DNA from: Escherichia virus TH47 | Reading direction: 5' to 3' (one strand) | Length of the DNA: 64,000 nt | Sequence record: MT446416.1 | In this document: positions 23,497-56,008 of the stretch, in pieces | How positions within the stretch are numbered: the first letter of the stretch is position 1 | Layout: each line of letters begins with the position of its first letter | The notes under the pieces: model-generated | What the model saw: the letters and a program-made list of their open reading frames with translations, nothing else | What the model was told of the DNA's origin: nothing | Database searches by the model: none | Translations under genes and position numbers: made by a program

Positions 23497-23532
23497 AATC
23501 AAATGAATGAACGAATTATATGGAGTCCAAAA

Positions 23533-40391: not shown

Positions 40392-41000
40392 TTATTGTAG
40401 TTGGACACGAACTGTGTATTTGATTTGCAAAACACGGTTAGCACTTTTCTCAACTGGGTGAAAAATAATATGGGTAAGTGGAATACCGCTATCACCATTT
40501 GTATATAAACCCAATTCGTCAAATACATATGTCCCATCCATGCTAGTACCAGAGCTAACACCTTGGTCAGATGGCTCACCTAAACCTAATGTACAAATAC
40601 AGACGATATCAGTGTAAGCTTGGCCTGGAATGTGAACAGTTGTAATGTTGTTATATTGTGAATCAATACCAGCAGAGATACGTGGGTTGATTTTTTTCAG
40701 ATAAGTCTGAGAATATAGACCACCGAAAGAAGTAACGCGTGGTTTCTTGTATGTGATACGACCAGTACTCAAAACTACTGTTCCACCATTACCAAAACGC
40801 ATCTCACTAATAGATCCAATAGGAATACCAGTACTATCTTGATTATAAGCCAACGCATTAGCAATAGCAGTACTCATATTTTCAGGGTGAATTGCGTTTG
40901 ATTTATCCAAAACGATTTTTTGGTTAGATGGATCAGTAACGTCAGTAATTAGTACATGACCCTTAACAAATAGTTTTGGTTGTTCTGTTTCTAATTTCAT
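40392..41000 (-). CDS. Hypothetical structural protein
   Basis: 202-aa ORF, tight spacing with neighbours. Confidence 0.4.
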   Translation of the reverse strand: MKLETEQPKLFVKGHVLITDVTDPSNQKIVLDKSNAIHPENMSTAIANALAYNQDSTGIPIGSISEMRFGNGGTVVLSTGRITYKKPRVTSFGGLYSQTYLKKINPRISAGIDSQYNNITTVHIPGQAYTDIVCICTLGLGEPSDQGVSSGTSMDGTYVFDELGLYTNGDSGIPLTHIIFHPVEKSANRVLQIKYTVRVQLQ

Positions 41001-41009
41001 TTCTAATCC

Positions 41010-41507
41010 TTAGTAGTTAATTAAAATTTGTTCTAACTTACCAGCTAAACTTTTTTGTACATCAGATGGATACTTGCTAATGTAATCACGGTCAATACCA
41101 ACTTTCAGATAGGTAAAGTTTCCGGTTAAGGTTTCAGCGAATGTACCAGTTGTACCTTGTTCTCTAATAAGGTCACCACCATTTGGGTTAAGAATGACAT
41201 TATCAGTAAATTCAAGATAGAAGTTGCAGCTTTCGGTAAATTTAATTGGGAACCAATCATCGTCCGATGGATTACTTGCCAGTGTAGCGAGTACGTAAAT
41301 TCTACCAATGAAGTTACGTAGGGTAAAGGATATTGTATGTAATCCTGTAGTACTACCATAATAGCCGCCACTAGCTAATGATAATGTTTGTTCGTTCCAA
41401 TGATAATCTAAGTTAGCAGGATACCAGCTATCTGATTCAGGAAATTCTTGCCATGAACCATCTTTAGTTTTTCTTTTGAAGAGGAAGTCTTTTGATCTTA
41501 ATGCCAT
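41010..41507 (-). CDS. Hypothetical structural protein
   Basis: 165-aa ORF, first gene of minus-strand operon. Confidence 0.4.
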   Translation of the reverse strand: MALRSKDFLFKRKTKDGSWQEFPESDSWYPANLDYHWNEQTLSLASGGYYGSTTGLHTISFTLRNFIGRIYVLATLASNPSDDDWFPIKFTESCNFYLEFTDNVILNPNGGDLIREQGTTGTFAETLTGNFTYLKVGIDRDYISKYPSDVQKSLAGKLEQILINY

Positions 41508-41573
41508 TGTTAAGCCCTTTTAGTAGTGAACTTTCATTTATTTATTAATGGCAACGAAATGTATTTTGTACTG

Positions 41574-41580
41574 ATAAATA
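41574..41580 (+). promoter_or_regulatory. Candidate late promoter -10 box (gATAAATA) for tail-fibre locus
   Basis: ATAAATA 37 nt upstream of ATG 41617. Confidence 0.35.
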
Positions 41581-41616
41581 TTGGTATATGACATTAACTC
41601 ATACAAGGGAAATATT

Positions 41617-42744
41617 ATGACAATTTCATTCAACAATGGGTCAGGTGGTTCATGTAATAATTCTGGCATCAAAAGTTTAGTTATTAACGCTGCTGGACAT
41701 TTAATTGTAACCTATTCCGACAATACAATCCAAGACCTAGGTCTAGTGGTTGGACAAAATGGTGCTAACGGTAGAAACTTTTATCCAAATGAGATAGGTT
41801 TTGAAGTTCCTAATGAACTCTTCCGTGTTGGTGAAGAACTAGGGTGGTGTTATCTTAGTCTTGCAAATGGCACTAGTACTTTATATTTTAAATCAAACGA
41901 TGCACAAGAAGAAATTAGTACTTGGAACCGTGTAGAGTTTGGTAAAGGTGATACTGGCGAAACTGGTAAACCATTCCACATTGACAGTTCTGGTACGGTG
42001 TTTCCAACAACTGGTCTTTTCAATAATTACACATTCTATAATACTGAAGATGGTAAATTATATTTCTATCAAAGCGTAACTGCAACATGGAGTGATGGTA
42101 TTCCTTTCCGTGGTGAACAAGGTCTACGTGGTCGTTTCCATATTGATAGTACTGGTAGTCAATTCCCAAGTATTGATAATCTACCACAAGATTATTGCTT
42201 CTATAACACTACTGATGGTAATTTGTATTATGTTGATATCGTAACTACATCATCAACCCCAACTAAAGAGTGGAGTGCTGGAATCTTATTCCGTGGTAAA
42301 GACGGTGAAGAAGGTAAGCAAGGTGAGCAAGGTGTTCAGGGTGAACCTGGTAAAGACACAGTTGTTATCATCAACACTATTGATCATTCATGGACTAACG
42401 CATTGTTAGTTATTGGTACATGCCCTGCTGGATACCTAGTAACTAATATCGAAGTTGACATTAATCAAGCATATGATGAACCAGTAAATGAAATGTTTGT
42501 ACGTTTCGGTGGTGAAGCACAAGAAGATATTGGTGGTACTGTAATTGCACCTGTTGATTATTTCGATATCAACCGCAAAATGCGTTACATTGTTAACGAA
42601 ACCAACCACGAAGTATCAAGTAAAGATGAAATCATTTCTTGTGTATTCAATGATTCCGTAAACAACAGTTCATTTGGTGAAATGAAGATCGTTTGTACTT
42701 TATCATGGCAAGCACCTATTCAGCCTATTCAAGATAACATTTAA
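41617..42744 (+). CDS. Tail-fibre-like protein with collagen-like G-X-Y stretch and internal module duplication
   Basis: ORF-track start 41581 is TTG; ATG 41617 with AAGGGA RBS; GKDGEEGKQGEQGVQGEPGKD collagen-like run; two homologous modules (FHIDSSGTVFP...FYNTEDGKLYFY and FHIDSTGSQFP...FYNTTDGNLYYV). Confidence 0.5.
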   Translation: MTISFNNGSGGSCNNSGIKSLVINAAGHLIVTYSDNTIQDLGLVVGQNGANGRNFYPNEIGFEVPNELFRVGEELGWCYLSLANGTSTLYFKSNDAQEEISTWNRVEFGKGDTGETGKPFHIDSSGTVFPTTGLFNNYTFYNTEDGKLYFYQSVTATWSDGIPFRGEQGLRGRFHIDSTGSQFPSIDNLPQDYCFYNTTDGNLYYVDIVTTSSTPTKEWSAGILFRGKDGEEGKQGEQGVQGEPGKDTVVIINTIDHSWTNALLVIGTCPAGYLVTNIEVDINQAYDEPVNEMFVRFGGEAQEDIGGTVIAPVDYFDINRKMRYIVNETNHEVSSKDEIISCVFNDSVNNSSFGEMKIVCTLSWQAPIQPIQDNI

Positions 42745-42758
42745 AAGAGGGTTGATAC

Positions 42759-44900
42759 ATGGCAGTTTTTTCCAATTTAGAAGGGACCATGATGCCAACA
42801 TTCAAGTTGGGTAAACGTGGTGCTTCTATTAATTTTGTAAACGATTCTGTCGCAATCAAAGACTTTTTAGGTGAAACGTTCCTACCTGTTAAGGTGGGAA
42901 CTCCTAATGACGATGATTCCGCAGTAAACGTTATGTATCTTGAAGATAACCCAAATGCTTTATTTGGCGTACTTCCACCAACAAATGACATTGGTAAAAA
43001 TAACAACACTTATTTTCAAGTTGATTCTGAGGGTATTGTTGATATCTTTGCAAAAACAAATGATGTTTGGGTAAAATCATTATACATTAATAAAAATGTC
43101 CTTTCCAGTGTTAACGGTGCTGATTATATCGGACTTATTACTGGAGGAACACTCCAACAGGCACAGTTTTACATAACTCCAGAAGAGTTTGGTGCAAAAG
43201 GTGATGGCATCACTGATGACACGGCAGCGGTTAACGCATGTGCAGTTTATGCAAAAGAACACCAAATCCAAATTCAAGCTGGTGGTAATTATCGTATCAG
43301 AACTGCTGTTTATTTGAATGATATTCAATGGTTTGGTGGAACAATCACTGGCAACGGTGGCACAATGGTATCAGTACTGAATAGTACAATCCAACAAGCA
43401 ACATTAACAGGATGTTATTTAAAATTCTTTGGTGGTGATGGTAAATTTTATTTTAATAAATTTATTAATATTACAAGTACTGCTACATTTCTAATGCAAG
43501 GTATGACTGAATCAGGTACTATCGACTTTTGCTTTAATGAAATGACACAATGTAAGTACGGTGTTCTTCAGCAAGGCACTGGTGAGAAAATGACAGTTGG
43601 GCGTTATTCATACAACCACATCCATGATATATATGGTGATGCAATTGAATTGAACGTAGTCAACTCACATTACCCAGACGGTTTTGTAATAGAAGGTAAC
43701 TTGATTGAAAACGTAGATGGTACAGATGCACCAATTCCTCTTTCAAACTGGGGTATTGGTATCGGCGTTGCTGGTTCTGGTCCTTATGATGTGAATGCTG
43801 ATGATTCACAATATGTAAAAAAATTCGTTATAAAAAATAACCGCTTGTACAATGTCCGTCAATGTATTCACGTTGAGTTGGGTAAAGACTTTAAAATTCT
43901 CAATAATGAAGTTTATCCATCAACGTTGGTATCAATTGGTACTGGTTTGACAACCGCTGGTGTAATTACTTATGGTTCTGTTGATTTTATTATTGATGGC
44001 CTATCTGGGCATCTATTAAATGATCCATCAGTAACTAACCGTATGGTTTCTATTAACTGGGGTGTAACATCTGGTAAATTTGCTGGTCCTCCACGTAACT
44101 TTAAATTATGTAATCTCCACATTCCTGAGTCGTCTATTATTGTGTATACTTCAGGCTCTGATAATTGGCTAAATACTACTGAACTTTCTAATATTACATG
44201 TAGTAGAATTCAATGGCGTGGATTGCCGTCATCTTCCAAGTTTAATAATATCAGTACTAAAGAACTTGATGTTATTGGACAACACCTTGCAACTGAAGGT
44301 GAAGGAGGGGGCTTATATACTCGCTCTAAATATACATATACCAACTGGACTAATTGTGTTGTTCAAGATGATTGTAACATATCAAAATATAGTTTCTCAA
44401 GAATGTATGTTGACCGTATTGACCAATCATCTAATAACTTTAAAGTAACCACTGCAATTGATGGAACTGGACATCGTGGACCTGTAGTAATACCTGTAGT
44501 TGAACAGTATTACGTGCCTTATGATGTTTTTCCTGGTGGGAGATATTTCCCAGAAGGAACAATTATCCATAAACAATCAGGTGGAAAATTTATTGTTACA
44601 GTAGGTGGTTCTTTCTTTGGTCGATATGACACAATTAGACAAACAGTTGCAGGACAAACTTATATCGAAGCATTGGGTGTATCATGGGGTGATAATCAAT
44701 ATGCTAAAGCTGCTGGAACCGAAATCCTAATCACAGGAGCAGGGGAAAACGGCGAAGATTTAAAAACATATATCACTAGAGCAGTTTATGTTGTTAATAA
44801 TGCGTATCGTATCGATATTGCCGATCCGATTGTTACTGCTACCGCAGCAGGGGCATTATTGAAAGCTGCTCAACCAATAACATATATCACCCTATCTTAA
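42759..44900 (+). CDS. Tailspike/depolymerase-like protein with pectate-lyase-type beta-helix domain
   Basis: 713 aa; EEFGAKGDGITDDTAAVNA hallmark of right-handed beta-helix polysaccharide lyase/hydrolase tailspikes; N-terminal MAVFSNLEGTM module shared with next gene. Confidence 0.65.
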   Translation: MAVFSNLEGTMMPTFKLGKRGASINFVNDSVAIKDFLGETFLPVKVGTPNDDDSAVNVMYLEDNPNALFGVLPPTNDIGKNNNTYFQVDSEGIVDIFAKTNDVWVKSLYINKNVLSSVNGADYIGLITGGTLQQAQFYITPEEFGAKGDGITDDTAAVNACAVYAKEHQIQIQAGGNYRIRTAVYLNDIQWFGGTITGNGGTMVSVLNSTIQQATLTGCYLKFFGGDGKFYFNKFINITSTATFLMQGMTESGTIDFCFNEMTQCKYGVLQQGTGEKMTVGRYSYNHIHDIYGDAIELNVVNSHYPDGFVIEGNLIENVDGTDAPIPLSNWGIGIGVAGSGPYDVNADDSQYVKKFVIKNNRLYNVRQCIHVELGKDFKILNNEVYPSTLVSIGTGLTTAGVITYGSVDFIIDGLSGHLLNDPSVTNRMVSINWGVTSGKFAGPPRNFKLCNLHIPESSIIVYTSGSDNWLNTTELSNITCSRIQWRGLPSSSKFNNISTKELDVIGQHLATEGEGGGLYTRSKYTYTNWTNCVVQDDCNISKYSFSRMYVDRIDQSSNNFKVTTAIDGTGHRGPVVIPVVEQYYVPYDVFPGGRYFPEGTIIHKQSGGKFIVTVGGSFFGRYDTIRQTVAGQTYIEALGVSWGDNQYAKAAGTEILITGAGENGEDLKTYITRAVYVVNNAYRIDIADPIVTATAAGALLKAAQPITYITLS

Positions 44901-44914
44901 AGGAGATTATAAAA

Positions 44915-45814
44915 ATGGCAGTTTTTTCTAATTTAGAAGGAACCATGAAGAAGACCTTCATACTTGGTAAAAATGGTGCACAAATTGCCACTAATGGTAA
45001 TGTTGTTCAAATCCAGAACTACACGGGTACACAACTTCTTCCTGTTTCAGCAGGTGACCCAACCGCAAATACACACTTGGTTACATTGGGTTATTTGAAT
45101 ACACATAGCGGTGGTGGTGGCGGTTCCGGTATTTTACGTGGAACTATTGCACCATCTGAATCAATTGGTGTAGATGGTGACGCTTACTTCTTAGTTGACA
45201 GTACTAATATTATTCAGATCTATATTAAAGACCTTGGTGTTTGGAAACCTCTCCAAAGCACAACTCCAGGTACTGATAGTTCTTACGTTACTACTGAAAT
45301 CGTTCCTGTATCGGCATTTACATTAGTTCCTGGAACAACAGATCAATATACTTATTCTTTACCTGAATCAGTACATGGTCGTGGTCCAGATATTATGGTT
45401 CAGCTACAGGGTGACCCTGGTAACATCCCACTTGACACTGTATTCCAAACTAACGTCACTGTGAGTGGTATTGGTGACATTACGATTGATGTTATTGGTC
45501 AAATCACTGATTATACAAGTGTCAAAGTCAACATCATAGGAGCAACAACAATGACAGTACCTTATAGTAAATTAATTAACCAAGCGGATTGGGTAGTATC
45601 TAGTGATGAATACACCATTACTATCCCAGCGTCTGAACATAACCAAACACCTGATAATTTGTATATTTCAATTTATTCAAATAAAACTCCAGGTAGCACA
45701 GCAGCATCACCATTTGAACTGGTAATAACCGAAACTCAAATTGATGCAAGTGGTAATGTTACATTCACTTCTGACGAAGCGTTTAGTGGTAAAATAGTAA
45801 TTTCTGGTAAATAA
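44915..45814 (+). CDS. Tail fibre/spike protein paralog sharing N-terminal anchor domain
   Basis: Same N-terminal MAVFSNLEGTM...LGK.GA...LPV motif (first 33 nt nearly identical to 42759) with unrelated C-terminal region; AAGGAG RBS. Confidence 0.55.
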   Translation: MAVFSNLEGTMKKTFILGKNGAQIATNGNVVQIQNYTGTQLLPVSAGDPTANTHLVTLGYLNTHSGGGGGSGILRGTIAPSESIGVDGDAYFLVDSTNIIQIYIKDLGVWKPLQSTTPGTDSSYVTTEIVPVSAFTLVPGTTDQYTYSLPESVHGRGPDIMVQLQGDPGNIPLDTVFQTNVTVSGIGDITIDVIGQITDYTSVKVNIIGATTMTVPYSKLINQADWVVSSDEYTITIPASEHNQTPDNLYISIYSNKTPGSTAASPFELVITETQIDASGNVTFTSDEAFSGKIVISGK

Positions 45815-45822
45815 AAAAAATA

Positions 45823-45857
45823 GTCCAGACTACGATTCATCGAGTCTGGATTTTTTA
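45823..45857 (+). terminator. Rho-independent terminator
   Basis: TCCAGACT-acgattcatcg-AGTCTGGA hairpin followed by T6. Confidence 0.6.
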
Positions 45858-45932
45858 TATCAATAACTAAATATATGTATATTAACAAGGTCAAATGTAT
45901 TTTATGCTTTTTGCCTATTTGGAGGGAACTAA

Positions 45933-48900
45933 ATGTACTCGATTAAAACAGATCTCGATATAACTGGTGGTGCAACGGTTGGTAAAGATCTTCTTGTGAA
46001 AGGCGATGCAGTATTCAATAAAAATCTAACAGTTAATGGAACCGTAACTTTTGCTGACGCTGTATTCACTGCGATTGAAGCAGGAACTGTAGACATTTCA
46101 TCTACACTAGATGTTGCTGGTAAAGCATCATTGAATGGTGGGATTGAAGTTCATGGTAATTCCGTAATTGGTAATTTACCAGTTGGCTCTGATACTGCAA
46201 CGATTAATTCTAATGCACAATTCCAAAGCCCAGTATCAATGGCAGGTAACCTAACACAAACGGCTGGCACTGCTGTACTAAAAGATACCCAAGTGGCATC
46301 AATGGATGTTCTTGGAACTTCTTCATTTAAAGGTAATATTACTGCTGAAACTGGCACTACCGCAGCATTTGACAAAATAACTGCAACTGATGCAACATTC
46401 ACAAACACTGCAACTACTGATATCACATCAACTGGAACTGCAAACTTTAAAGATGTGAATATTTCCGGTACACTAGGTGGAACATTTAGTCTATCTGATG
46501 TTAATGCAACAACTCTAACTGTTTCTGGTTTAACCAGTCTACAAGGTGGTGTTACATTAGGTTCCAACATTACTGGTGTGAATAGTAGTGCAAACTTCCG
46601 TGATATTAAAATTGGTTCCAATGCTGCAAACACTAACTACCGTTTGAGCTTTAACTATTCTGCTCCAAGTCTTCGTCCAACTGTAATTCTACAGAACGAA
46701 ATCCAATCAGAATTGATGTCTCCAGCTACCCTAAGTGTATTGAAAACTGCATCTTTTGGTGATTCGTCATTATCCACTTTTGGTATTACTGGTAATGGTC
46801 TAAACAAACTAGATTACCTAACAGTATCTGGTAACTCTGTTCAAGATCCAACAACTCCACTATTACAAGTAACTTCAGGTAAAACTAAAGTTCATGATTT
46901 CGAAGTAACAGGAACTGCAACTATTCCTAACATTGAAAGTACTGGAACTGCTAATTTTAATAACATCAACGTATCTGGTACACTCGGCGGTACTTTCAGT
47001 CTTGATGATATTGAAGCAAACACTCTAACTGTTTCTGGATTAACTAGCCTTGTTGGTGGTGTAACTTTGGGTGCTGATATTTCCGGTGCTAATAGTACTG
47101 CTAATTTTAAAGCAGTAAGTTTAGGACAAAACGCAGCCGATGCTAACGTTAAGTATGGTTTTGCTTATTCTGCCCCTGGTGCACGTCCAACTGTAATTCT
47201 ACAAAATGAAATTCAGTCTGAACTAGTATCTCCAGCAGTACTAAATGTACAAAAAACTGCTACCTTCGGTGATGCATCTCTTGCAACCTATGGTATCACA
47301 GGTAACGGTCTAAACAAACTAGATTATCTATCTATTACTGGTAATGGTACACAAAGTCCAGCAACGCCACAACTACAAGTAGCTGGTAAATCAGTACTAA
47401 ATGATGTTGAATTCACTGGTACTGTAACTGGCCTAACAGTTGATGTAAGTGGTCAAGACCTAACTCCTAAATCTGTTGTTGCTGCTGAAGCAATCAAAGG
47501 ACAAACCCTTGAATCTGTTGGTCAAACCACCGTAGGAACTAACCTACAAGTTGGTGGAACAGCTAATGTTGTTGGTGCACTAACTGGTACTGCTGCAACC
47601 TTTACTGGTGACGTAAGTGCTGCTAAAGGTACTTTCAGTGGTGATGTTAGCGTTACTGGGCAAACTGTAACTGTACGTGATTTAGTAGTAACTGGCACAA
47701 CTACTGGTGTAACTGCCCAAGCTGACGTTGATGGTCTTGATATCGCCCCAAATAAAGTTGATGTTACAACAACACTATCTGTTGCTGGGGACACTACTTT
47801 AGCTGGTCTAACTGCTAGTTCAGTAACAAGTACTGGTGATGTTACTGGTGCGTCTGTATCTGGTAATACAGTAACTGCGGCTGGTGCACTATCTGGTGGT
47901 TCTCTTGCAGTAACTGGTGCTGGTTCTATGGCTTCACTAACTGTTCCAAGTATTACTGGGGACACTACTTTTGCTAATAACGTAACTATTACTGGAACAC
48001 TAACTCCGAGTAGTATAGATTTAAGCACTACTGATGTAAGTGCTGCTTCTTTAACAACTACTGGTAACGTAACTGTTGGTGGTTCTCTTGCAGTAACTGG
48101 TGCTATTGATTTGTCTGCTGCTGATGTAGTAACAAAATCAGTTAGTGCAACTAACCCAAGTACATTTGGTGTAATTAATGCATCTTCTGTTGCCGCAACT
48201 GGTGACGTTTCAGGTGGCACTCTAACTACTACTGGTGCAGCGAAAGTAGGAACACTAACTAGTACTGGTGTAGTATCTGGTTCGCGTTTGTCTTCTGGTA
48301 CTGCAACAATCTCAACTTCTGTAACAGTTCCAACTTTACAAGCTGAAGCTGCTGGTGCTGGTACACTAAATCTAGCAAGTAATGTTGTCGCGGCAAAAGA
48401 TCTAACTGTCACTGGTGTATTCAAACCTGAAGGTGGTCTTGACCTAACAACTGTTGATATTACTGCAAACTCACTAACTACTACTGCTGATGTTAATGTT
48501 GGTGGAAACTTAGTAGTTGATGGTACTTTTGACCTAAGTGCTGCTGATGTATCAGTTAAATCTCTTGTAAGTGCAGAGGCAATTACTAGTGGTGGTGTGA
48601 TTACCGTTACCGATTCAACCAATACTAGTTCGTTCCCTAAAATTACTTCAACTGATGCAACACTCTTTACAGTAAATGCAGGTACTATTAATGCAACTGG
48701 CAACAGTGTACTACAAAGTGTATCAGCTACTCAAGTAACTGCTACTAGTGCTGAATTTTCTGGTAGTGGCCTTGGTCTTCAAGTTGATAATGATGCAAAC
48801 GTTGGTGGTGCATTATCTGTTGGTGGCATTGCAACTGTTGGTTCTTTAACAACAACTGCTGCTTCTCTTAATATTGCAAAAAATACTGCAATCAATGGTG

Positions 48901-50891
48901 ATTTAGCTGTATCTGGTACACTAACTGCTGGTTCAATCGACCTAAGCAATACTGATGTAACCGTTAAATCTCTTGATTCACTAGGTAACGCACACATTGC
49001 TGGTAACCTAACTGTTGATGGTGCATTCGACTTAAGTGCAACTAACCTTGTAGCTGCAAGTCTAGCAAGTACTGGTTCTACTACTGTTGGAACTGATCTA
49101 GTACTAACAACTGGTGTTGTGACTGGTAGCCCAGCTATCTCTGGTAATACAACAATCGGTGGAACTCTTGGTGTAACTGGTGCTGTTAACCTAACTGATA
49201 TTGTTAATATCGGTAAGAAAGTAACAGTGAGTACTGGTGGTATTCAGGTAGTTGATGGTGGTATCAATACTAACACAATTAACGTTTCTGGTGCTACTAC
49301 TCTAGCAGGAACTTCCATTACTGGAACTTTAGGTGTAACTGGTGCTTCTACTCTAGCAGGTGTATCTGCAACATCACTAACAGTTTCTGGTGACAGTACT
49401 GTTCAGAAACTAACTGTCCAAGGTGAATTGATCCCACAAGGTGGTCTTGACCTAAGCGGTGCAGACATTACTGCTAATAGTCTAACTACTGCAACAACTA
49501 TCAATGCAACTGGCCTAAGTACTCTAAGTGGTGGTGTTAGTACTTCTACTGTGACTGCATCTGGTCTAGCAACTGTTGGAAGTTTAACTTCTACTGCAAA
49601 CGCATCAGTTGGTGGTAATTTGGGTGTAACTGGAACTCTAGGTGTTACTGGTGCAACTACTGTATCTTCACTAACAGCTACTGGTGCAGTGAAAACTGGT
49701 ACAACCCTAACTGTTGGTACTCCAGTTGGTGAACAACCTGAAACTGTACAGATCATTCCAGATACTTATATTGCTGGTAAATTGCGTGTAATCGGCGGTA
49801 TTAACGCTGATATTGATGTTAGTGGTCAAACACTAGAACCATATGCAATTGAAGCTGCTGCAACACTATCTGCTGTTGGTAACATTACTTCTGGTGCAAC
49901 CATCGTTTCTAAAGCTGCAACAATTGGTGATGTTGGTTCACAAAACAACAACCTAACTGTTAATGGTAACGTAGTAACTAATGGTGACTTCACAGTTACT
50001 GGGGTACTAAATGCACAATTGAACCAAGCAGATTCCGATGTAGCTGTTAAATCTTTAACTGCAACTAATAACGTTGCGGCTGGTACTTCAATCACTGCTG
50101 GTACTTCCATCACTGCAACTGGATTACTTAAAGGTAATACTTTAGAAGTTACTACTACTGGTTCATTTGGTGGTGCAGTAACTATGTCAAGTGGTGCAAA
50201 CATCACTGGTACAGTGGGTATTACTGCTGGTGACCTAACAGTAGGTGGTAATATCTCTGCAACTGGCACTGCTGGATTCGGTGCAACAACCGTTTCTACA
50301 ATTACAACATCAGGTTTGGCTACACTTGCAAGTACATCCGTTACTGGTAACGCAACAGTAGGTGGAACACTAGCAGTAACAGGAGCACTAACTGCGAATG
50401 GTAACGTAACATTAGGTGACGCAGCGGCTGACGTTCTAACCGTTAATGCAACTTCATCATTTAAAGAAAATGCTGTGTTTGATAAGGCAGTAACAGTAAC
50501 TGGTGAACTAACCACTACTAATGCTAACTTAACTACTACAACAGTAACTACCAAAAAGTATGATGTAATCCCAACTCAAGTTACATCATCAGTAATTGCT
50601 CCAACCGGAACATGGACTCCAGATGGTACAAGTAACGTGTACTTCATCACTCTAGACCAAGATACCACGTTGGCTCCAATTACTGGCCTAATTGGTGGCG
50701 GTAAAGCTGCATCAGTATACATCTATGTTAAACAAGATACAACTGGTAACAGAAACTTTACAACTGATGGTACTTATGCTGTTGTTGATGGTGAACTAAA
50801 CAAAACTGCTGGTAGCGTGACCATTTACCAAGTAATTTATGATGGTGTAAGTCCAGTTACTGATTTGTTCATTGCACAACGTACTGCTTAA
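45933..50891 (+). CDS. Giant repetitive fibrous protein (1652 aa), long tail fibre or whisker-like
   Basis: GGAGGG RBS; extremely Thr/Gly/Ala/Val/Ser/Asn-rich beta-type low complexity with repeated about 35-aa modules and a 170-aa tandem duplication; followed by chaperone-like gene. Confidence 0.6.
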   Translation: MYSIKTDLDITGGATVGKDLLVKGDAVFNKNLTVNGTVTFADAVFTAIEAGTVDISSTLDVAGKASLNGGIEVHGNSVIGNLPVGSDTATINSNAQFQSPVSMAGNLTQTAGTAVLKDTQVASMDVLGTSSFKGNITAETGTTAAFDKITATDATFTNTATTDITSTGTANFKDVNISGTLGGTFSLSDVNATTLTVSGLTSLQGGVTLGSNITGVNSSANFRDIKIGSNAANTNYRLSFNYSAPSLRPTVILQNEIQSELMSPATLSVLKTASFGDSSLSTFGITGNGLNKLDYLTVSGNSVQDPTTPLLQVTSGKTKVHDFEVTGTATIPNIESTGTANFNNINVSGTLGGTFSLDDIEANTLTVSGLTSLVGGVTLGADISGANSTANFKAVSLGQNAADANVKYGFAYSAPGARPTVILQNEIQSELVSPAVLNVQKTATFGDASLATYGITGNGLNKLDYLSITGNGTQSPATPQLQVAGKSVLNDVEFTGTVTGLTVDVSGQDLTPKSVVAAEAIKGQTLESVGQTTVGTNLQVGGTANVVGALTGTAATFTGDVSAAKGTFSGDVSVTGQTVTVRDLVVTGTTTGVTAQADVDGLDIAPNKVDVTTTLSVAGDTTLAGLTASSVTSTGDVTGASVSGNTVTAAGALSGGSLAVTGAGSMASLTVPSITGDTTFANNVTITGTLTPSSIDLSTTDVSAASLTTTGNVTVGGSLAVTGAIDLSAADVVTKSVSATNPSTFGVINASSVAATGDVSGGTLTTTGAAKVGTLTSTGVVSGSRLSSGTATISTSVTVPTLQAEAAGAGTLNLASNVVAAKDLTVTGVFKPEGGLDLTTVDITANSLTTTADVNVGGNLVVDGTFDLSAADVSVKSLVSAEAITSGGVITVTDSTNTSSFPKITSTDATLFTVNAGTINATGNSVLQSVSATQVTATSAEFSGSGLGLQVDNDANVGGALSVGGIATVGSLTTTAASLNIAKNTAINGDLAVSGTLTAGSIDLSNTDVTVKSLDSLGNAHIAGNLTVDGAFDLSATNLVAASLASTGSTTVGTDLVLTTGVVTGSPAISGNTTIGGTLGVTGAVNLTDIVNIGKKVTVSTGGIQVVDGGINTNTINVSGATTLAGTSITGTLGVTGASTLAGVSATSLTVSGDSTVQKLTVQGELIPQGGLDLSGADITANSLTTATTINATGLSTLSGGVSTSTVTASGLATVGSLTSTANASVGGNLGVTGTLGVTGATTVSSLTATGAVKTGTTLTVGTPVGEQPETVQIIPDTYIAGKLRVIGGINADIDVSGQTLEPYAIEAAATLSAVGNITSGATIVSKAATIGDVGSQNNNLTVNGNVVTNGDFTVTGVLNAQLNQADSDVAVKSLTATNNVAAGTSITAGTSITATGLLKGNTLEVTTTGSFGGAVTMSSGANITGTVGITAGDLTVGGNISATGTAGFGATTVSTITTSGLATLASTSVTGNATVGGTLAVTGALTANGNVTLGDAAADVLTVNATSSFKENAVFDKAVTVTGELTTTNANLTTTTVTTKKYDVIPTQVTSSVIAPTGTWTPDGTSNVYFITLDQDTTLAPITGLIGGGKAASVYIYVKQDTTGNRNFTTDGTYAVVDGELNKTAGSVTIYQVIYDGVSPVTDLFIAQRTA
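46431..47450 (+). repeat. Tandem direct duplication (2 x about 510 bp) inside fibre gene
   Basis: Units begin at 46431 and 46941 with the same ACTGGAACTGC...TTTAA...ACACT.GG.GG.AC.TT.AGTCT...GAAGCAAACACTCTAACTGTTTCTGG pattern; protein repeats TGTANFKDVNISGTLGGTFSL... / TGTANFNNINVSGTLGGTFSL... Confidence 0.6.
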
Positions 50892-50911
50892 TAATTATAA
50901 TAAAAAAAACG

Positions 50912-50935
50912 GTGTCATCAATTATGGTGACACCA
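50912..50935 (+). terminator. Possible terminator hairpin (weak U tract)
   Basis: GGTGTCA-tcaattatgg-TGACACC stem-loop after stop at 50891; T-run weak. Confidence 0.3.
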
Positions 50936-50957
50936 TCTTAACAAGTGAGGTAGTTAT

Positions 50958-51737
50958 ATGTTTACATATGTAAAAGGTAGTTCTAAAGAAAATTATGAAT
51001 TGGGTAACATCATCTCCAACCCAGTTGGTGTTAAGGGTTTAAAAGAACGCCCTGGGGCAACTCCAGATGATGAACAAACATATCGTTATTTGTACAGTGA
51101 TATTCGTGCACTTTATGGTATTTCAAGTAAAGATGGTTCTGAAATTGAACCTAATAACGCTGTTCGCAAAGAAGAGGGTTTCTGGTGGTTGGAATATAAG
51201 AATGTTGGTAATGTGAACGCAATTAATGAGAATTTGGAATATATTAAACTACAAGATAGTAATCAACCAGTCATCACATTCTTAGAAGAAGCAGAAGGTG
51301 AATATAAAGAGTTAACAGTACTGAAAACTTATAATTATGTTGATATGGACATTGCAGCAGTTAAATCTGATCTGAAAGCACGCACAGTATCATCTCGTAG
51401 TGATCGTATTAATGCTGGTTATATGTTTAACGGTCATCGTTATAGTACTGATCTAGCTGGTCGTCAAATGCTTCTTAATTATTATACACAAGTAACTTCC
51501 GGTTCTGATAGCGTTTCGATTTTCCTTGATGACGCAATTGTAAAACTATCTGCTGCTGAAATGACTCAACTATACACTGAAGCATTTGCTATGGTTGAAT
51601 CCCTATTTGCAGAGTGTAATAAGCAATGTGCTGACATTGATGCAGTTCCTGATGCTGATGAAGATGCAATTTATAAAGCACAACAGGCGGCTGTATGGGT
51701 ATATGAAGGTATTGATATTCCTGAGCGTACTCGTTAA
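50958..51737 (+). CDS. Putative tail-fibre assembly/chaperone-like protein
   Basis: 259 aa immediately downstream of giant fibre gene; C-terminal region reminiscent of tail-fibre-assembly-like proteins; weak assignment. Confidence 0.35.
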   Translation: MFTYVKGSSKENYELGNIISNPVGVKGLKERPGATPDDEQTYRYLYSDIRALYGISSKDGSEIEPNNAVRKEEGFWWLEYKNVGNVNAINENLEYIKLQDSNQPVITFLEEAEGEYKELTVLKTYNYVDMDIAAVKSDLKARTVSSRSDRINAGYMFNGHRYSTDLAGRQMLLNYYTQVTSGSDSVSIFLDDAIVKLSAAEMTQLYTEAFAMVESLFAECNKQCADIDAVPDADEDAIYKAQQAAVWVYEGIDIPERTR

Positions 51738-51753
51738 TTTATATTTTTTTTAA

Positions 51754-51781
51754 AGGTCAACTATGGTTGGCCTTTTCTTTT
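51754..51781 (+). terminator. Rho-independent terminator
   Basis: AGGTCAAC-tatg-GTTGGCCT hairpin (one G-U pair) followed by TTTTCTTTT. Confidence 0.5.
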
Positions 51782-51788
51782 ATCTAAA

Positions 51789-51795
51789 ATAAATA
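51789..51795 (+). promoter_or_regulatory. Candidate late promoter -10 box (aATAAATA)
   Basis: ATAAATA 35 nt upstream of ATG 51830. Confidence 0.3.
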
Positions 51796-51829
51796 CTTAA
51801 TATATAATCTATTCTGAGGAAATATTTAA

Positions 51830-53794
51830 ATGAGTATAAATCGAATTAGAGGTGATGGTGGTGTAATTATAGATAGTCAGGCATTTCTAGAATTACCTAA
51901 AGCACCGACTAAAGAAACCGCTGATGTGGTTAGATCAGGGATGATTAGATACAATAAAGGATGGAAAGCATTTGAAGGTGTACTAGACTTTGAAGATGGT
52001 TCAATGGCATATCGACGTTTTGCAAACCTAGATGCGAACGGTAAACTTCTTACTTCCCAATTACCAGATTCAGTAACTAGTGGTTTACAATTTGTTGGTA
52101 CATATAATCCCATCCCAGATGATATCGATCCACCTTTAGCACAAACTCCACTACCAGCACCATCACCATCGCTTAATGGTGATTATTATGTCGTTCGTGG
52201 TATAATGGATGCCGCACAAGCACATTATGAAGCAAATAATCCACAAACAAGTCCTGTTACATTTACACCTACAAATCCAACTGGACAAGGTAATTGGATT
52301 GAAATTTTATATTATGTTGACTCTAATCCAAATATATCTGGTGCTAAACTAGTAACATACGCTTTTGCTAGAATTATTACTGCATCTATTCCCAGTACTG
52401 GACATGATGGCCTTGAAAATTTAGCAACAGATACTGACTTGACCAAACCATTTGCATCTGGTGTTCCAATGAACCAAACTGCACTTTCAGATGGCGATTG
52501 GATTATTATAACTGAAGATAAGAATATACGTCTTCGTCAGTCAAGAACAAGCATTTCCGCTGCTTCAGTATTATATGACAATACTGTAATGATTGCAAAT
52601 CATCGTCAATTTAGAACAAACGCAGGGACCGTTCAAACATCCATAGATAACGTTGTGATTGAGTGTTTACGTAGAACTGGCGATTCCATGTATAATGATG
52701 GAACAGACGGCTCTGGGCGTTTTGGGGTGGTGTATGGCAGTGCAGCAGCACCAGCATTGACATTTAATAATAATCCGTTTGACCCAACGAATAACCCAGG
52801 TAATGACCCAACTAAGTGGTCCGATGCTAATACTGGTATATTTCATCCATCCGATGACGCAATTGGGTTCAGCACTGCTGGCACAGAACGTGTTCGAATT
52901 AATAATGGAACACTAACATTATTCCAAACTACCGCTACACCAGCAGCTACGCCAGTAATACGTTTTGATAATGCATCAAACACAAACGTAGGGATAAGTG
53001 CAAGTAGTAATATTATTTCTTTAAGTTCAATGAATAAAGTTCAAGTTGAATTTAAAAATGGTGAATCACATTTTCATGGAAATATTATTGTAGATGGTTC
53101 AACATCACTAACTGGTGATTTAGACGCAGGTAACATCAATGCCAGCGGGAATTTAGTTGTTAAAGGTAATACAACACTAGGTGACACTACTGGTGACACT
53201 ATTACAGTTAATGGTGTTAGTACTTATAATGCAAATACTAATTTCAATGGAACTAATAACAAATTCAAAAACATAAACTTACTAGAGAATGGTGTATTCA
53301 CATTAGAAAGTACTACAAACCAAAGTGATATAAAACTACTTGGTGCAGACTTACGTTTCACTATGGGAAGTTATGCTGATGTAAGTATATATGATAACGG
53401 TGTTATTCGTACTCGTTTCAACCGATATGGTATTCAATTACCAGTACTGGCTACAATTGATAACTCGGTTGGTGTTGATGGTATGATTGCATACTCAAAT
53501 ACCGAACGTACATCGATGCAGAAGGTTCAAGGACAATGGGTTCCAATTGGTTCTGGTTCTGTTCGTACTGACCCGTTTGTTGCGTCAGCGTGGGTTTTAA
53601 ACGGCTCATATTACACATTAACAGTAACTGCTAGTAACATAGTAACTGCTGAAATTCAAGAACTCGTAAGTACTGGTGTTTACACTCGTGTTGAAGTTGA
53701 TAGTGTTACATTCAATGGAACAAGCGTAGTGTTCAGTATCCCTGCAACTCCTGATGTGAGATTTGCCGGACGTACACTGGTTACATTAAGATAA
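51830..53794 (+). CDS. Tail fibre protein
   Basis: 654 aa; N-terminal LELPKAPTKETADVVRSGMIRYNKGWKAFEG resembles conserved phage tail-fibre N-terminal motif; Gly/Asn/Thr-rich C-terminal region; GAGGA RBS. Confidence 0.5.
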   Translation: MSINRIRGDGGVIIDSQAFLELPKAPTKETADVVRSGMIRYNKGWKAFEGVLDFEDGSMAYRRFANLDANGKLLTSQLPDSVTSGLQFVGTYNPIPDDIDPPLAQTPLPAPSPSLNGDYYVVRGIMDAAQAHYEANNPQTSPVTFTPTNPTGQGNWIEILYYVDSNPNISGAKLVTYAFARIITASIPSTGHDGLENLATDTDLTKPFASGVPMNQTALSDGDWIIITEDKNIRLRQSRTSISAASVLYDNTVMIANHRQFRTNAGTVQTSIDNVVIECLRRTGDSMYNDGTDGSGRFGVVYGSAAAPALTFNNNPFDPTNNPGNDPTKWSDANTGIFHPSDDAIGFSTAGTERVRINNGTLTLFQTTATPAATPVIRFDNASNTNVGISASSNIISLSSMNKVQVEFKNGESHFHGNIIVDGSTSLTGDLDAGNINASGNLVVKGNTTLGDTTGDTITVNGVSTYNANTNFNGTNNKFKNINLLENGVFTLESTTNQSDIKLLGADLRFTMGSYADVSIYDNGVIRTRFNRYGIQLPVLATIDNSVGVDGMIAYSNTERTSMQKVQGQWVPIGSGSVRTDPFVASAWVLNGSYYTLTVTASNIVTAEIQELVSTGVYTRVEVDSVTFNGTSVVFSIPATPDVRFAGRTLVTLR

Positions 53795-53801
53795 TAAAAA
53801 A

Positions 53802-53826
53802 GGGAGACATAAGTCTCCCTTTTCTT
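53802..53826. terminator. Bidirectional rho-independent terminator between convergent genes
   Basis: GGGAGAC-ataa-GTCTCCC hairpin flanked by A-run and T-run. Confidence 0.65.
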
Positions 53827-54756
53827 TTATACAGCCATTGGTGCTTTGATTGTTGGCATTGGATCGTAATTAACTAATTTGAAAGAATCCATAGTGAAAT
53901 CTTCAATATCAGTAATAGTAGGATCTAACCATAATTCTGGTAATGTACGTGGTTCACGTTGGAGTTGCTCTTTTACTTGTTCAATATGGTTTTGATAGAT
54001 ATGGCAGTCGCCACCATTCCAAATAAATTCACCAACATCTAACCCAGTAATTTGTGCAATCATATGAGTTAGTAGTGAGTAACTACTAATGTTAAATGGT
54101 ACACCAAGGAATAAATCAGCACTGCGTTGATGAAGAATACAACTTAGTTTACCCTGTACAACACAAAACTGCACAAAGCTATGACAGGGTGGCAAAGTCA
54201 TAGCATCAAGCTCACCAACGTTCCATGCACTTAGAATGTGACGACGACCGTATGGATCAGTATTGATACCTTCAATAACTTGTTTTAGCTGGTCAGTTAC
54301 ACGACGCATAATAACACCATGTGAACCAGTATAATCAATAACTTTATACCCTTTATCTTTTAGTTCTTGAATTTCTTCAGTACTGGAACTGAATTTATAA
54401 TCTTCCCATTCACGCCATTGTTTACCATAAACTGGGCCAAGCTCACCATCAGAATACCCAAGGCTTACACCTTGATTAAGGTAGTTGTCTGTCCAAATTG
54501 TTTTCTTTTCTACATCACGTGTCCCGTGTAAAATTTCACACAGACGACGCTCATCGTGAGAACCTTCAATAAACCATAACAATTCTGAAGTCATTGCTTT
54601 CCAAGCCAAACGTTTAGTAGTTACTGCTGGGAAACCTTCTTTTAGGTCAAAACGCATTTGTTGTCCGATTAGCTTGATAGTGCCAACACCAGTACGATCA
54701 ACGCTTTCGACACCTTGATCCAGAATTCTTTGATATAGTTCTTGTAGTTGTTTCAT
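53827..54756 (-). CDS. thyA: Thymidylate synthase (ThyA/Td family)
   Basis: Near-collinear similarity to E. coli ThyA: DRTGVGT, GPVYGKQWR, RRHILSAWNVGELDAMTLPPCH (catalytic Cys), QFCVVQGKLSC, HQRSADLFLGVPFNISSYSLLTHMIA, KAPMAV C-terminus; one about 25-aa insertion. Confidence 0.9.
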   Translation of the reverse strand: MKQLQELYQRILDQGVESVDRTGVGTIKLIGQQMRFDLKEGFPAVTTKRLAWKAMTSELLWFIEGSHDERRLCEILHGTRDVEKKTIWTDNYLNQGVSLGYSDGELGPVYGKQWREWEDYKFSSSTEEIQELKDKGYKVIDYTGSHGVIMRRVTDQLKQVIEGINTDPYGRRHILSAWNVGELDAMTLPPCHSFVQFCVVQGKLSCILHQRSADLFLGVPFNISSYSLLTHMIAQITGLDVGEFIWNGGDCHIYQNHIEQVKEQLQREPRTLPELWLDPTITDIEDFTMDSFKLVNYDPMPTIKAPMAV

Positions 54757-55349
54757 TTTACGTCCTTGAAAAATGTAATAAAGTGTTCCATGTGTTTTTG
54801 TGTAGCATTACGTGAACCAATCCCAGTCCAGTTACCGTGTGGTGCTGGTATTGAGAATGTTTCAGTAAACTCTTTCAGTACTGTATCATAATAAAATACA
54901 GAGCGAGTGTTCATATCATAACAATATATTTCTGGATTATCAACTGAATCCATATACATCTGTACTGCCCATGCAGTTCCACCTGAAACTTGCGTAGGTG
55001 ATGTAATATTTGCAATACAATATACTCTTTTAGTATTAAGTATCTGATAACTATTTCTTGCAAGTAATTTATATACATACGAACCGGGCTTCGGAACTGT
55101 TCGGCGTAAAGAGTAACATGCAATGTTTAATTGTTTTAATATTGAACTATCACAAAGGATATTGGATGGAATTTCTAATATAGTATTTTCATCTACGCTG
55201 CTTTGGTGACCCTTGAATGAAAAATTTATTACTTCAAATCCATTGTCTTTTGCATAGATAGAAAAAAGGCGGTCAGCACCTGCTGCCCCGCCACTGAAAC
55301 ATACATTAGATAAACCATTGATTGCTTCATCTAATTCTATTTTATTCAT
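54753..55349 (-). CDS. Hypothetical Rossmann-like protein (GGAAGAD motif; SLOG/DprA-like?) co-transcribed with thyA
   Basis: 198 aa; ATGA overlap with thyA start; N-terminal VCFSGGAAGADRLF nucleotide-binding-like motif; no DHFR similarity. Confidence 0.35.
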   Translation of the reverse strand: MNKIELDEAINGLSNVCFSGGAAGADRLFSIYAKDNGFEVINFSFKGHQSSVDENTILEIPSNILCDSSILKQLNIACYSLRRTVPKPGSYVYKLLARNSYQILNTKRVYCIANITSPTQVSGGTAWAVQMYMDSVDNPEIYCYDMNTRSVFYYDTVLKEFTETFSIPAPHGNWTGIGSRNATQKHMEHFITFFKDVK

Positions 55350-55354
55350 TTATA

Positions 55355-56008
55355 TTATTTTGCTTTACGTTCTGCAAATGCCTGTTTAACTTTCTCAATT
55401 GCTTTGGTTTGTGAAATTCCTTCTGGGATTTCAATATAGAAAGTTTTGCTATCAGGTGCTACAGGTGTTGCTTGAACTTGTGGACGTAGAGATGGTTCTA
55501 AGTTGTAAGCACGTTCAAAGTGCTCTTTAGCCAACTGCTCATAACGTTGTGCATCTTTAAGTAGTTGCTCAACAATGGTAGCTTCTTCAACAGAAGTATC
55601 AACTTCTTGTGGCTTGAATGGGTTGTATTCTTTAACTTTACCATCTTCATGTTTTTTAGTATCATTATCATTGATTGCGTTGTTTAGAACATCAAGAGAA
55701 ATCTTACTGTTTCCGCCAACATGCATATCAATATCACAAGTACGTGCACGACGCAAATGTTGTAGATTATGAAGAACATCTAGCATTTTGCGACCGTCTA
55801 GATGACCAATCTTATGCATAACTTCCCACAAATCTACATTCGATTGACCTTGATTCATTACTAAATCTGCAACAGATTGAGCATATGCTTCAGGAAGTGA
55901 GTCGCGATAAACAATGAGACAATGTTCTGGATCATCAGGGAGTGAACGCCATACCACAAATACTCGTGAACCCGTATTACGTACTACACCAACGTGACGA
56001 ATAGCCAT
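55355..56008 (-). CDS. Hypothetical protein
   Basis: 217-aa ORF with strong AAGGAG RBS; no recognisable motif. Confidence 0.4.
   Translation of the reverse strand: MAIRHVGVVRNTGSRVFVVWRSLPDDPEHCLIVYRDSLPEAYAQSVADLVMNQGQSNVDLWEVMHKIGHLDGRKMLDVLHNLQHLRRARTCDIDMHVGGNSKISLDVLNNAINDNDTKKHEDGKVKEYNPFKPQEVDTSVEEATIVEQLLKDAQRYEQLAKEHFERAYNLEPSLRPQVQATPVAPDSKTFYIEIPEGISQTKAIEKVKQAFAERKAK

Follow-up and report, generated by a model that had tools for sequence, protein, structure and literature searches.

A probable hybrid fibre gene in place of two paralogues

A giant fibre gene of a 121Q-like jumbo coliphage has an ancient, fixed internal duplication and is itself probably an in-frame fusion of two tandem paralogous fibre genes, here called A and B, brought about by a deletion of ~5.85 kb. 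The gene occupies 45933..50891 on the + strand of the 64,000-nucleotide stretch that we analysed (hereafter the window; Escherichia virus TH47, record MT446416.1), which is DNA of an Asteriusvirus-like jumbo coliphage of the 121Q/PBECO4/WPEC5 group. The open reading frame is the one originally predicted: it encodes 1652 aa, begins with ATG and has its own GGAGG ribosome-binding site (45921-45925, + strand), read in the sequence 5' of the start. As also predicted, the product is rich in Thr, Gly, Ala and Val (T 17.9%, G 12.5%, A 11.0%, V 10.8% and S 9.9%, with T/G/A/V/S amounting to 62% of the protein). The position of the gene is conserved, between a 299-aa structural gene and a 259-aa DUF4376 gene and upstream of thymidylate synthase, and a tailspike gene and other tail genes lie in the same cluster. 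A terminator-like hairpin (TCCAGACT / AGTCTGGA, then T6) can be read in the letters at 45824..45856 (+ strand), 3' of the upstream 299-aa gene; a consensus terminator scan did not list it because its loop is longer than 8 nt.

All nine of the nearest phages, whose flanks are 97-99% identical to those of the window, carry tandem paralogous fibre genes at this site: gene A, of 4917-4935 bp (1638-1644 aa), and gene B, of 5700-5967 bp (1899-1988 aa). WPEC5-type pairs include CDS0403 and CDS0404 of WPEC5, g317 and g316 of fEgEco12, and CDS402 and CDS403 of WPEC3. In these WPEC5-type phages the flanking genes on both sides are as in the window, but two separate fibre genes stand where the window has one 1652-aa fusion. 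Compared with such a pair, the window is without the last 750-770 nt of A (~766 nt in the WPEC5-type phages), the 149-nt spacer and the first ~4931 nt of B, and neither the body of B nor the tip of A occurs elsewhere within the 64-kb window. Frameshifts are present in CMSTMSU and in gene A of vB_Ec-M-J, which were compared at the DNA level only.

Comparison of the nucleotide sequences showed a chimeric pattern in the window gene and a two-gene state in all nine relatives. The first 4437 nt of the window gene are 97-98% identical to gene A of the nine phages, and the stretch from 45933 to 50093 has 97.4-98.6% nucleotide identity to A. For the B-type distal part, which encodes the last 263 aa (50102..50891, + strand), identity to gene B is 99.5-99.6% in WPEC5, WPEC3, EC.P1 and fEgEco12; the 3' end of the gene, taken together with the DNA downstream, matches gene B plus flank at 99%. 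Aligned with WPEC5, the window matched gene A and its upstream flank along 41000-50728; along 49683-56000 it matched gene B at the 3' end and the flanking DNA downstream, the offset being 5846 bp. For each of the nine relatives, ~210 informative sites of A type are followed by ~250-350 of B type, with a clean switch at 50093/50102; in a three-way comparison no informative site as far as 50093 set the window apart from gene A.

The A/B crossover interval (50094..50101, + strand) is 8 bp long against WPEC3, EC.P1 and fEgEco12, and spans 50094-50128 against WPEC5. The parts on either side and the interval itself (4161 + 8 + 790 nt) add up to 4959 nt, the exact length of the gene. An 18-bp tandem repeat, two copies of GCTGGTACTTCMATCACT encoding AGTSIT AGTSIT, was found at 50079..50116 (+ strand) by Tandem Repeats Finder and alignment; the B genes have one additional 18-nt copy there.

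Proposed origin of the fusion

Unequal homologous recombination between A and B, within a ~400-bp stretch of ~90% A/B similarity, would account for this structure. A crossover at 50094-50101, inside the 18-bp repeat, would have deleted ~5.85 kb comprising the tip of A, the intergenic spacer and the body of B, and would have left a single in-frame gene in which the A anchor and the ~880-aa A shaft run on into the final 263 aa of B, tip included. Given such a fusion, the phage should display one hybrid fibre type, not two, and should have kept the B/121Q-type tip. Fibre genes are known for their mosaicism (T-even gp37/gp38, P2/Mu-type and tailocin fibres), in which homologous recombination in conserved stretches swaps distal receptor-binding parts. 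The recombination principle is the same here, but the exchange in the window would have been between tandem paralogues of one genome, not between phages, and would have removed a gene. A and B are deep paralogues, with 53% identity by BLASTP and 67% over MAFFT-aligned columns. Relatives show A/B exchange tracts in the crossover region, indicating that these paralogues do recombine.

The same join could have been made by an assembler that jumped across the similar 3' regions of A and B in a genome that really has both genes. The junction lies exactly at the peak of A/B likeness, inside a short tandem repeat, and the hybrid was found in no other public sequence searched: a 71-nt junction probe had no exact match in viral, metagenome or genome contig collections, an exact-protein look-up found the hybrid fibre protein nowhere on record, and no phage record covered the whole window gene at high identity. 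The chimera therefore rests on one assembly. However, at the crossover A and B are strictly identical for no more than 8-38 nt, according to which relative is compared, and nowhere in any relative do they share an exact run of more than 80 nt; an assembly with k above ~40 or with long reads would not be expected to collapse there. The join is also clean and in frame, the haplotypes are consistent on either side of it, and the exchange tracts of the relatives, which are real, fall in the same region. We consider an artefact improbable on this evidence. Less probable by a further step is an ancestral single gene of merely hybrid appearance, with the nine relatives having gained a 5.85-kb insertion (A tip, spacer and B body) from another phage. 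The more distant 121Q/phAPEC6 group is likewise single-gene at this site, but its gene is mostly B-like from mid-shaft to C-terminus and is not hybrid-shaped. Moreover, in the trees of both flanks, rooted with 121Q, the window is nested in the two-gene clade, beside BF17 and Turkey3, and for all the deep divergence of A and B, each parental part still matches the window at 98-99.6%. A deletion takes one event; an insertion would take several, or a window basal to the clade. These points argue for deletion as the direction of the event.

The internal duplication

The fibre gene had originally been singled out for two consecutive 170-aa units, described as a recent 510-bp tandem duplication, largely identical at the protein level, with ongoing length variation by unequal recombination that may tune fibre length. 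The placement of the units was exact. Unit 1 (aa 167-336; 46431..46940, + strand) and its tandem copy, unit 2 (aa 337-506; 46941..47450, + strand), were each recovered by repeat search, unit HMM and offset identity, the HMM matching aa 167-335 and 337-506. A tandem repeat is also significant at the nucleotide level: identity at offset 510 is 0.68, ungapped, over 450 nt, compared with a mean of 0.31 for in-frame offsets and 0.39 for the second-best offset (z = 10-16 for offset 510), and the repeat search returned 510-spaced blocks, D6 and D9, at 73-74%. Tandem Repeats Finder, run with a maximum period of 500, did not report the 510-bp repeat because its period exceeds that limit, and the offset statistics were used in its place.

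The age and similarity ascribed to the copies did not hold up. Over the full 510 nt they are 63% identical without gaps (61% at the amino acid level), and the codon-aligned copies are 68% identical in nucleotides and 66% in amino acids, with dS ~1.3 and dN ~0.26. The units are nearer to their counterparts in the paralogue and in 121Q (72-78%) than to the neighbouring unit (66%); unit 1 of the window, for example, is 75% identical to unit 1 of paralogue B and 72% to that of 121Q gp571, against 66% to its own unit 2. A comparison of repeat number among related phages gave exactly two units in all nine close relatives and in the 121Q/phAPEC6 group, and the length differences among the close relatives fall outside the units. 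With the unit HMM, two units were found in the window gene, A, B, gp571, gp256 and most distant homologues, and copy number varied, from 1 to 3, in distant homologues only. Searching exhaustively with unit 2 turned up just 18 cluster representatives; the unit thus forms a narrow family.

The 510-bp duplication is older than the divergence of the fibre paralogues and that of the 121Q lineage. Since purifying selection acts on each copy, the duplication is structural and fixed; it is no variable repeat. Being old and fixed, it signals no recent event of current copy-number change, and it is of no special interest by itself. The tandem, in-frame arrangement of the repeat and its clear statistics, the 1 to 3 units of distant homologues, and the third unit of one metagenomic relative (P0002/L014), 84% identical in nucleotides to the adjoining one, could all be read in favour of a recent duplication whose copy number still shifts by unequal recombination and tunes fibre length. 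Set against the divergence of the copies and the count of two in all the near-identical relatives, in the 121Q/phAPEC6 group and in most distant homologues, we regard that reading as very nearly untenable. The idea of length variation by unequal recombination fails at the 510-bp repeat but finds examples elsewhere in the family, in the third unit of the metagenomic relative, in in-frame shaft indels and in the A/B fusion. Unequal recombination shapes this gene between paralogous genes, not at the 510-bp repeat.

Family, domains and predicted fold

The assignment as a fibre is supported by a match to PHROG 4549 (tail fiber; E 1.9e-200), by homology to a fibre of phage phiTE and by an orthologue found in virions. 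The orthologue, phAPEC6 gp256 (180 kDa), was detected in virions by mass spectrometry with 15 unique peptides (PMC7247149). The order of genes in the window is the same as around phAPEC6 gp256 and its 121Q equivalent gp571 (1841 aa; annotated ‘long tail fiber proximal subunit’ or ‘tail fiber protein’). These proteins resemble the window protein in genomic position, in their N-terminus, in having two 170-aa units at matching residues and in their C-terminal 250 aa, which are 83-94% identical to the B-type part of the window protein. They differ in having only ~73% amino acid identity over the first 518 aa and a divergent middle, in being 189 aa longer and in showing no recent A/B chimera.

Several misleading database labels could be put right along the way. 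The window protein matched no family in Pfam (a set searched without PF26209) or NCBIfam, and the phiTE ‘putative tail fiber protein’ (9cuy_g, E 1.8e-32) was the sole sequence match in the PDB at E<=1. The label ‘long tail fiber proximal subunit’, that of T4 gp34, which relatives carry in GenBank, was rejected on the results of these database searches. No family model matched the window protein that would justify the labels FliK, YadA or colanic-acid-degrading protein. Bactofilin scored 15 bits, against a cut-off of 27.9, in 121Q gp571 only, and as a fold match had E ~5.

The phiTE protein (793 aa; from a Pectobacterium phage; PDB 9CUY/9MJN chain g) shares homology with the window protein in three places: unit 2, the motifs of the shaft and the C-terminal domain. 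The 9cuy_g alignment covers unit 2 and the C-terminal 230 aa of the window protein: the second half of unit 2 corresponds to phiTE fibre residues 207-371, and window residues 1418-1649 align with residues 563-792. In predicted structures the C-terminal folds of the two match. The phiTE fibre is half as long, with about one unit-like segment as against two full units in the window, and nothing in the alignment corresponds to its baseplate-binding N-terminal region (residues 14-171, the sole part built into the map). The window protein showed no alignment to chain residues 1-206, where phiTE has the helical bundle by which it docks with the baseplate wedge and the sheath initiator; the N-terminus of the window fibre is beta-rich and different. 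Chain 9cuy_g is presumably the long tail fibre of the phiTE paper, which describes a trimer with a predicted extended beta-helix (PMC11972413).

From its N-terminus the window protein begins with a region of 166 aa (aa 1-166; 45933..46430, + strand), delimited from gene translations, A/B pairwise alignment and the alignment consensus. Its start, MYSIKTDLD, is common to the window gene, A, B and the 121Q-type genes, and it is presumably the virion-attachment end. After the two units comes the A-type repetitive shaft (47451..50093, + strand), defined by autocorrelation, a motif map and the three-way comparison with genes A and B. Built of short repeats, predicted to be beta strands, the shaft has periods of 6 and of 11-12 residues by autocorrelation, and motifs of the type G..L....(I)DLS..D(V/I)...SL recur about ten times along it. 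Indels among relatives are mostly in frame in the shaft, with recurrent steps of 18 nt.

The C-terminal globular beta domain (~aa 1554-1652; 50592..50888, + strand) was recognized from AF2, BFVD, the PDB sequence match and PF26209. Its sequence identifies it as a phiTE gp241-type fibre C-terminal domain (PF26209, Phage_phiTE_241_C): PF26209 is recorded for a protein, P0027, that is 100% identical to the last 173 aa of the window protein, and a word-indexed search with these 173 aa found only 3 proteins. The domain is presumed to be the receptor-binding tip. In the AF2 model of the C-terminal part the domain (model residues ~155-250) had pLDDT 79-95; in the monomer the shaft was predicted as beta strands at pLDDT 55-74. 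Compared with the predicted viral structures of BFVD, the C-terminal model had 139 matches at E<=0.001, K9L5R6 among the fold matches, and the named proteins among the best 50 of the 139 were nearly all tail-fibre or fibre-like proteins. A Foldseek search of the model against PDB gave nothing significant (best E 0.014). The AF2 monomer of the two units (aa 160-520) had pLDDT 58 and no secondary structure; for an obligate oligomer aligned only shallowly, this would not be surprising. The fibre is very long, rich in beta strands and probably trimeric, with a trimeric beta-helical fold suggested by the phiTE likeness.

Location on the virion and use of the natural variant

The chimera is compatible with two locations of its product. 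Instead of a baseplate tail fibre, the protein may form the long ‘hair’ or ‘whisker’ fibres on sheath and capsid of 121Q, phAPEC6 and CBB, although we think this the less likely location, at perhaps a one-in-several chance. The baseplate fibres of these phages are short and the hairs long: in CBB they measure 28.6 nm and 119 +/- 10 nm, respectively, the hairs bearing tiny globules at their ends (PMC5259590). Long fibres have likewise been described on the sheath and capsid of phAPEC6 and 121Q (PMC7247149, PMC5646251). Scaling from the phiTE fibre (793 aa, predicted 51 nm) gives, by rough extrapolation, ~107 nm for 1652 aa, and the homology to phiTE excludes the baseplate-binding N-terminus of that fibre. 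However, the named homologues are nearly all tail fibres, including the baseplate-attached long tail fibre of phiTE, and the gene stands in a cluster with the tailspike and other tail genes. The CBB authors, moreover, expected no hair genes in GAP32, yet CBB_226, annotated as ‘long tail fiber proximal subunit’ and taken here by its label, has a GAP32 homologue (PMC5259590). Somewhat more doubtful still is the fuller version, in which the 121Q gp571/phAPEC6 gp256 family would encode the ~120 nm sheath and capsid hairs, genes A and B would each specify a hair type of their own, and the window phage would have arisen as a natural mutant whose hairs are all of one hybrid type; were it true, the window phage and its two-gene relatives would offer a direct genetic handle on hair function.

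Wherever the fibre sits, gene fusion is nothing out of the ordinary and only modestly interesting. In the window, two tandem paralogous fibre genes appear to have collapsed into one in-frame hybrid, a clean example from nature with the breakpoint mapped to 8 bp. Phage host range is set by fibre genes, and the fusion may have an effect on it. Should sequencing reads bear out the junction, this phage and its relatives with two genes would differ by a defined 5.8-kb deletion, a ready-made comparison for learning how far each fibre matters to the adsorption and host range of 121Q-like jumbo phages.

The repetitive composition of the gene had also been predicted to produce long spurious antisense ORFs, and the counts of stop codons agree. 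The longest lies at 47522..48703 (- strand) and the others at 46151-46633, 49403-49756 and 49826-50554 (- strand); all four share one antisense register, which contains 24 stops as compared with 132 and 157 in the other two. A single open antisense register fits the ACT/GGT/GCN/GTN codon bias of the fibre gene, and the four ORFs are by-products of that bias, not genes.

A probable fusion of two tandem fibre genes

All nine phages nearest to the window (WPEC5, CMSTMSU, EC.P1, Ecwhy_1, fEgEco12, vB_Ec-M-J, WPEC3, BF17 and Turkey3), whose flanks are 98-99% identical to it, carry two tandem paralogous fibre genes here. Gene A measures 4917-4935 bp and gene B 5700-5967 bp, and the two share 53% identity by BLASTP and 67% over MAFFT-aligned columns. 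The window fibre gene has the sequence pattern of an A/B chimera: 41000-50728 aligns to gene A and its upstream flank, and 49683-56000 to the 3' end of gene B and its downstream flank, with an offset of 5846 bp between the two alignments. In a three-way comparison, informative sites are A-type through 50093 and switch to B-type at 50102, or at 50129 when WPEC5 is the reference; the few sites that break this pattern coincide with polymorphism among the relatives. The crossover falls within an 18-bp tandem repeat (50079-50116, AGTSIT AGTSIT), of which the B genes have one 18-nt copy more, within a ~400-bp stretch of ~90% A/B identity. The pieces sum to the exact gene length (4161 nt of A, an 8-nt interval and 790 nt of B, or 4959 nt), and neither the body of B nor the tip of A was found elsewhere in the 64-kb window. 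Fibre genes are well known for internal repeats and recombinational mosaicism; what is new here is this particular A/B fusion, whose breakpoint is finely mapped.

With the more distant jumbo phage 121Q as root, flank trees place the window within the two-gene clade, and a single deletion from the two-gene state is therefore the parsimonious reading. The same placement makes it very unlikely that the event ran the other way, with the two-gene relatives gaining an insertion and no deletion in the window phage. An assembly mis-join deserves slightly more weight but is still improbable: phage records, an exact-protein look-up and viral, metagenome and genome contig collections yielded no second instance of the hybrid junction, yet the stretch over which A and B are exactly identical is only 8-38 nt long at the crossover and nowhere exceeds 80 nt, which argues against k-mer collapse in a modern assembly.

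Genes A and B evidently recombine, as relatives carry A/B exchange tracts in the crossover region. The part of gene A equivalent to window 50172-50340, in its 3' region, is B-like in WPEC5, EC.P1, Ecwhy_1 and fEgEco12 and divergent and 18 nt shorter in WPEC3, BF17 and Turkey3, a distribution that points to gene-conversion tracts between the tandem paralogues. Unequal recombination, which the original prediction had placed at a 510-bp internal repeat, thus finds support between paralogous genes but not at that repeat in this clade.

Two relatives have irregular fibre genes. In vB_Ec-M-J, a 14-nt deletion splits gene A (L013 10548-15468) into two annotated CDS, as a pseudogene or through sequencing error, and gene B (L013 4432-10398) is 246 nt longer than in other relatives, its middle segment replaced and indel-rich. 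In the UNVERIFIED record of CMSTMSU (L008 4273-15051), numerous frameshifts break up both fibre genes, and the many small CDS that result, all labelled 'flagellar hook-length control protein FliK', are an annotation artefact caused by poor sequence quality.

An old internal duplication

The two 170-aa units proposed within the gene (46431-46940 and 46941-47450) were placed exactly, a unit HMM matching the protein at aa 167-335 and 337-506. The repeat is also clear in nucleotides: an offset of 510 gives 0.68 ungapped identity across the first 450 nt, against a mean of 0.31 for in-frame offsets and 0.39 for the next best offset (z 10-16), and a repeat search of the DNA returned 510-spaced blocks at 73-74% identity. 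Tandem Repeats Finder missed the 510-bp repeat because its period limit is 500.

The units had been described as largely identical and recent, and they are neither: codon-aligned, they share 68% nucleotide and 66% amino acid identity, with dS ~1.3 (near saturation) and dN ~0.26. Unit 1 is nearer to unit 1 of gene B (75%) and of gp571, the single 121Q gene at this position (72%), than to its own unit 2, and unit 2 is likewise nearer to its counterparts (77-78%) than to the neighbouring unit 1. Judged from these identities, the duplication therefore predates both the A/B paralogue split and the 121Q split. By unit HMM, two units are present in 121Q, in phAPEC6 and in most distant homologues at 35-45% identity, and repeat number does not vary among the nine close relatives, all of which have two; the duplication is old and fixed. 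The suggestion of ongoing length variation accordingly fails for the window phage and its clade, where no recent unit duplication was seen, but such duplication does occur in the family. The unit count is three in three homologues and one in another. In P0002 (2120 aa), a single-gene relative encoded on an ENA metagenome contig (L014 1957-8319), units 1 and 2 of three are 84% identical in nucleotides, which marks a comparatively recent duplication.

An exhaustive search with unit 2 returned just 18 cluster representatives among 1.8 billion proteins. In two very long proteins from this search, just the final ~60 residues of the unit (GITGNG..DYL..PQLQV..VEFTG) are repeated: P0033 (2713 aa) has 17 copies and P0038 (3387 aa) has 8. 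This unit end evidently can act as a sub-module that multiplies alone.

Family, structure and predicted role

The predicted ORF (45933-50891, +) is real, encoding 1652 aa from an ATG with GGAGG eight bases upstream, after a terminator-like hairpin that closes the preceding gene. Its composition is repetitive and T/G/A/V-rich, as first noted, with T, G, A, V and S together making up 62% of the protein. The shaft shows periodicities of 6 and 11-12 residues and ~ten copies of the motif G..L....(I)DLS..D(V/I)...SL. The long antisense ORFs were rightly regarded as spurious: all four share one register with 24 stops, versus 132 and 157 in the other two, a pattern that ACT/GGT/GCN/GTN codon bias predicts.

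The gene and its flanks match Escherichia phages of 350-386 kb, identifying the source, by sequence, as an Asteriusvirus-like jumbo coliphage. The fibre assignment is borne out, and the gene falls in a fibre family that is known and already annotated. The protein matches PHROG 4549 'tail fiber' (E 1.9e-200), and 15 unique peptides of its positional orthologue phAPEC6 gp256 (180 kDa) were detected when purified virions were analysed (PMC7247149). Pfam and NCBIfam searches found no family for the window protein. The labels FliK, YadA, colanic-acid-degrading protein and T4-like proximal subunit carried by relatives are supported by no model in Pfam, NCBIfam or PDB sequence searches.

The sole PDB sequence match (E 1.8e-32) is 9cuy_g from Pectobacterium phage phiTE; this 793-aa 'putative tail fiber protein' aligns to unit 2, the shaft motifs and the last 230 residues. 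We take this chain to be the phiTE long tail fibre, which PMC11972413 describes as a trimer and predicts to form an extended beta-helix. The published model of that fibre covers only N-terminal residues 14-171, to which nothing in the window protein corresponds. An AF2 monomer of the last 253 aa gave a confident globular beta domain at ~aa 1554-1652 (pLDDT 79-95), which is Pfam PF26209 (Phage_phiTE_241_C), preceded by low-confidence beta strands. The C-terminal model had no significant structural neighbour in the PDB and 139 matches at E<=0.001 among predicted viral structures; named proteins among the top 50 are nearly all tail-fibre or fibre-like, phiTE included. For the two units, AF2 gave no informative model. 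The domain layout and homologies of the window fibre are established.

The protein would form a long trimeric beta-structured fibre, ~100 nm when scaled from that of phiTE (793 aa, predicted 51 nm), with the conserved N-terminus MYSIKTDLD... docking on the virion and the C-terminal domain contacting the host. From mid-shaft to C-terminus, gene B is similar to the single 121Q gene (83-94% identity over the last 250 aa), so the hybrid retains a 121Q-type tip on an A-type shaft. The deletion would leave one hybrid fibre type in place of two, and adsorption may be narrowed or otherwise changed as a result. 121Q-type jumbo phages bear six short fibres on the baseplate, and their sheath and capsid carry long hair-like ones (PMC7247149, PMC5259590, PMC5646251). 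The window protein may be one of the hairs, which its size suits better than it does the short baseplate fibres, although those homologues that have names are tail fibres.

Neighbouring genes

An ORF of 3332 aa lies at 23503-33501 (+); a possible counterpart is phAPEC6 gp245, a 382-kDa virion protein of unknown function. A 713-aa colanidase-like tailspike (42759-44900, +; PHROG 6117) and the 299-aa structural protein next to it (44915-45814, +) both begin MAVFSNLEGTM and have in common an N-terminal domain of ~110 aa (41% identity, E 2e-19), probably a virion-docking adaptor on two different distal domains. Directly 3' of the fibre gene, a 259-aa gene (50958-51737, +) matches DUF4376 (PF14301, E 3e-9) and, weakly, PHROG tail-fibre families. 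Every relative, like metagenomic contig L014, has a homologue after its last fibre gene. The 259-aa product may act as an accessory to the fibre or help to assemble it.
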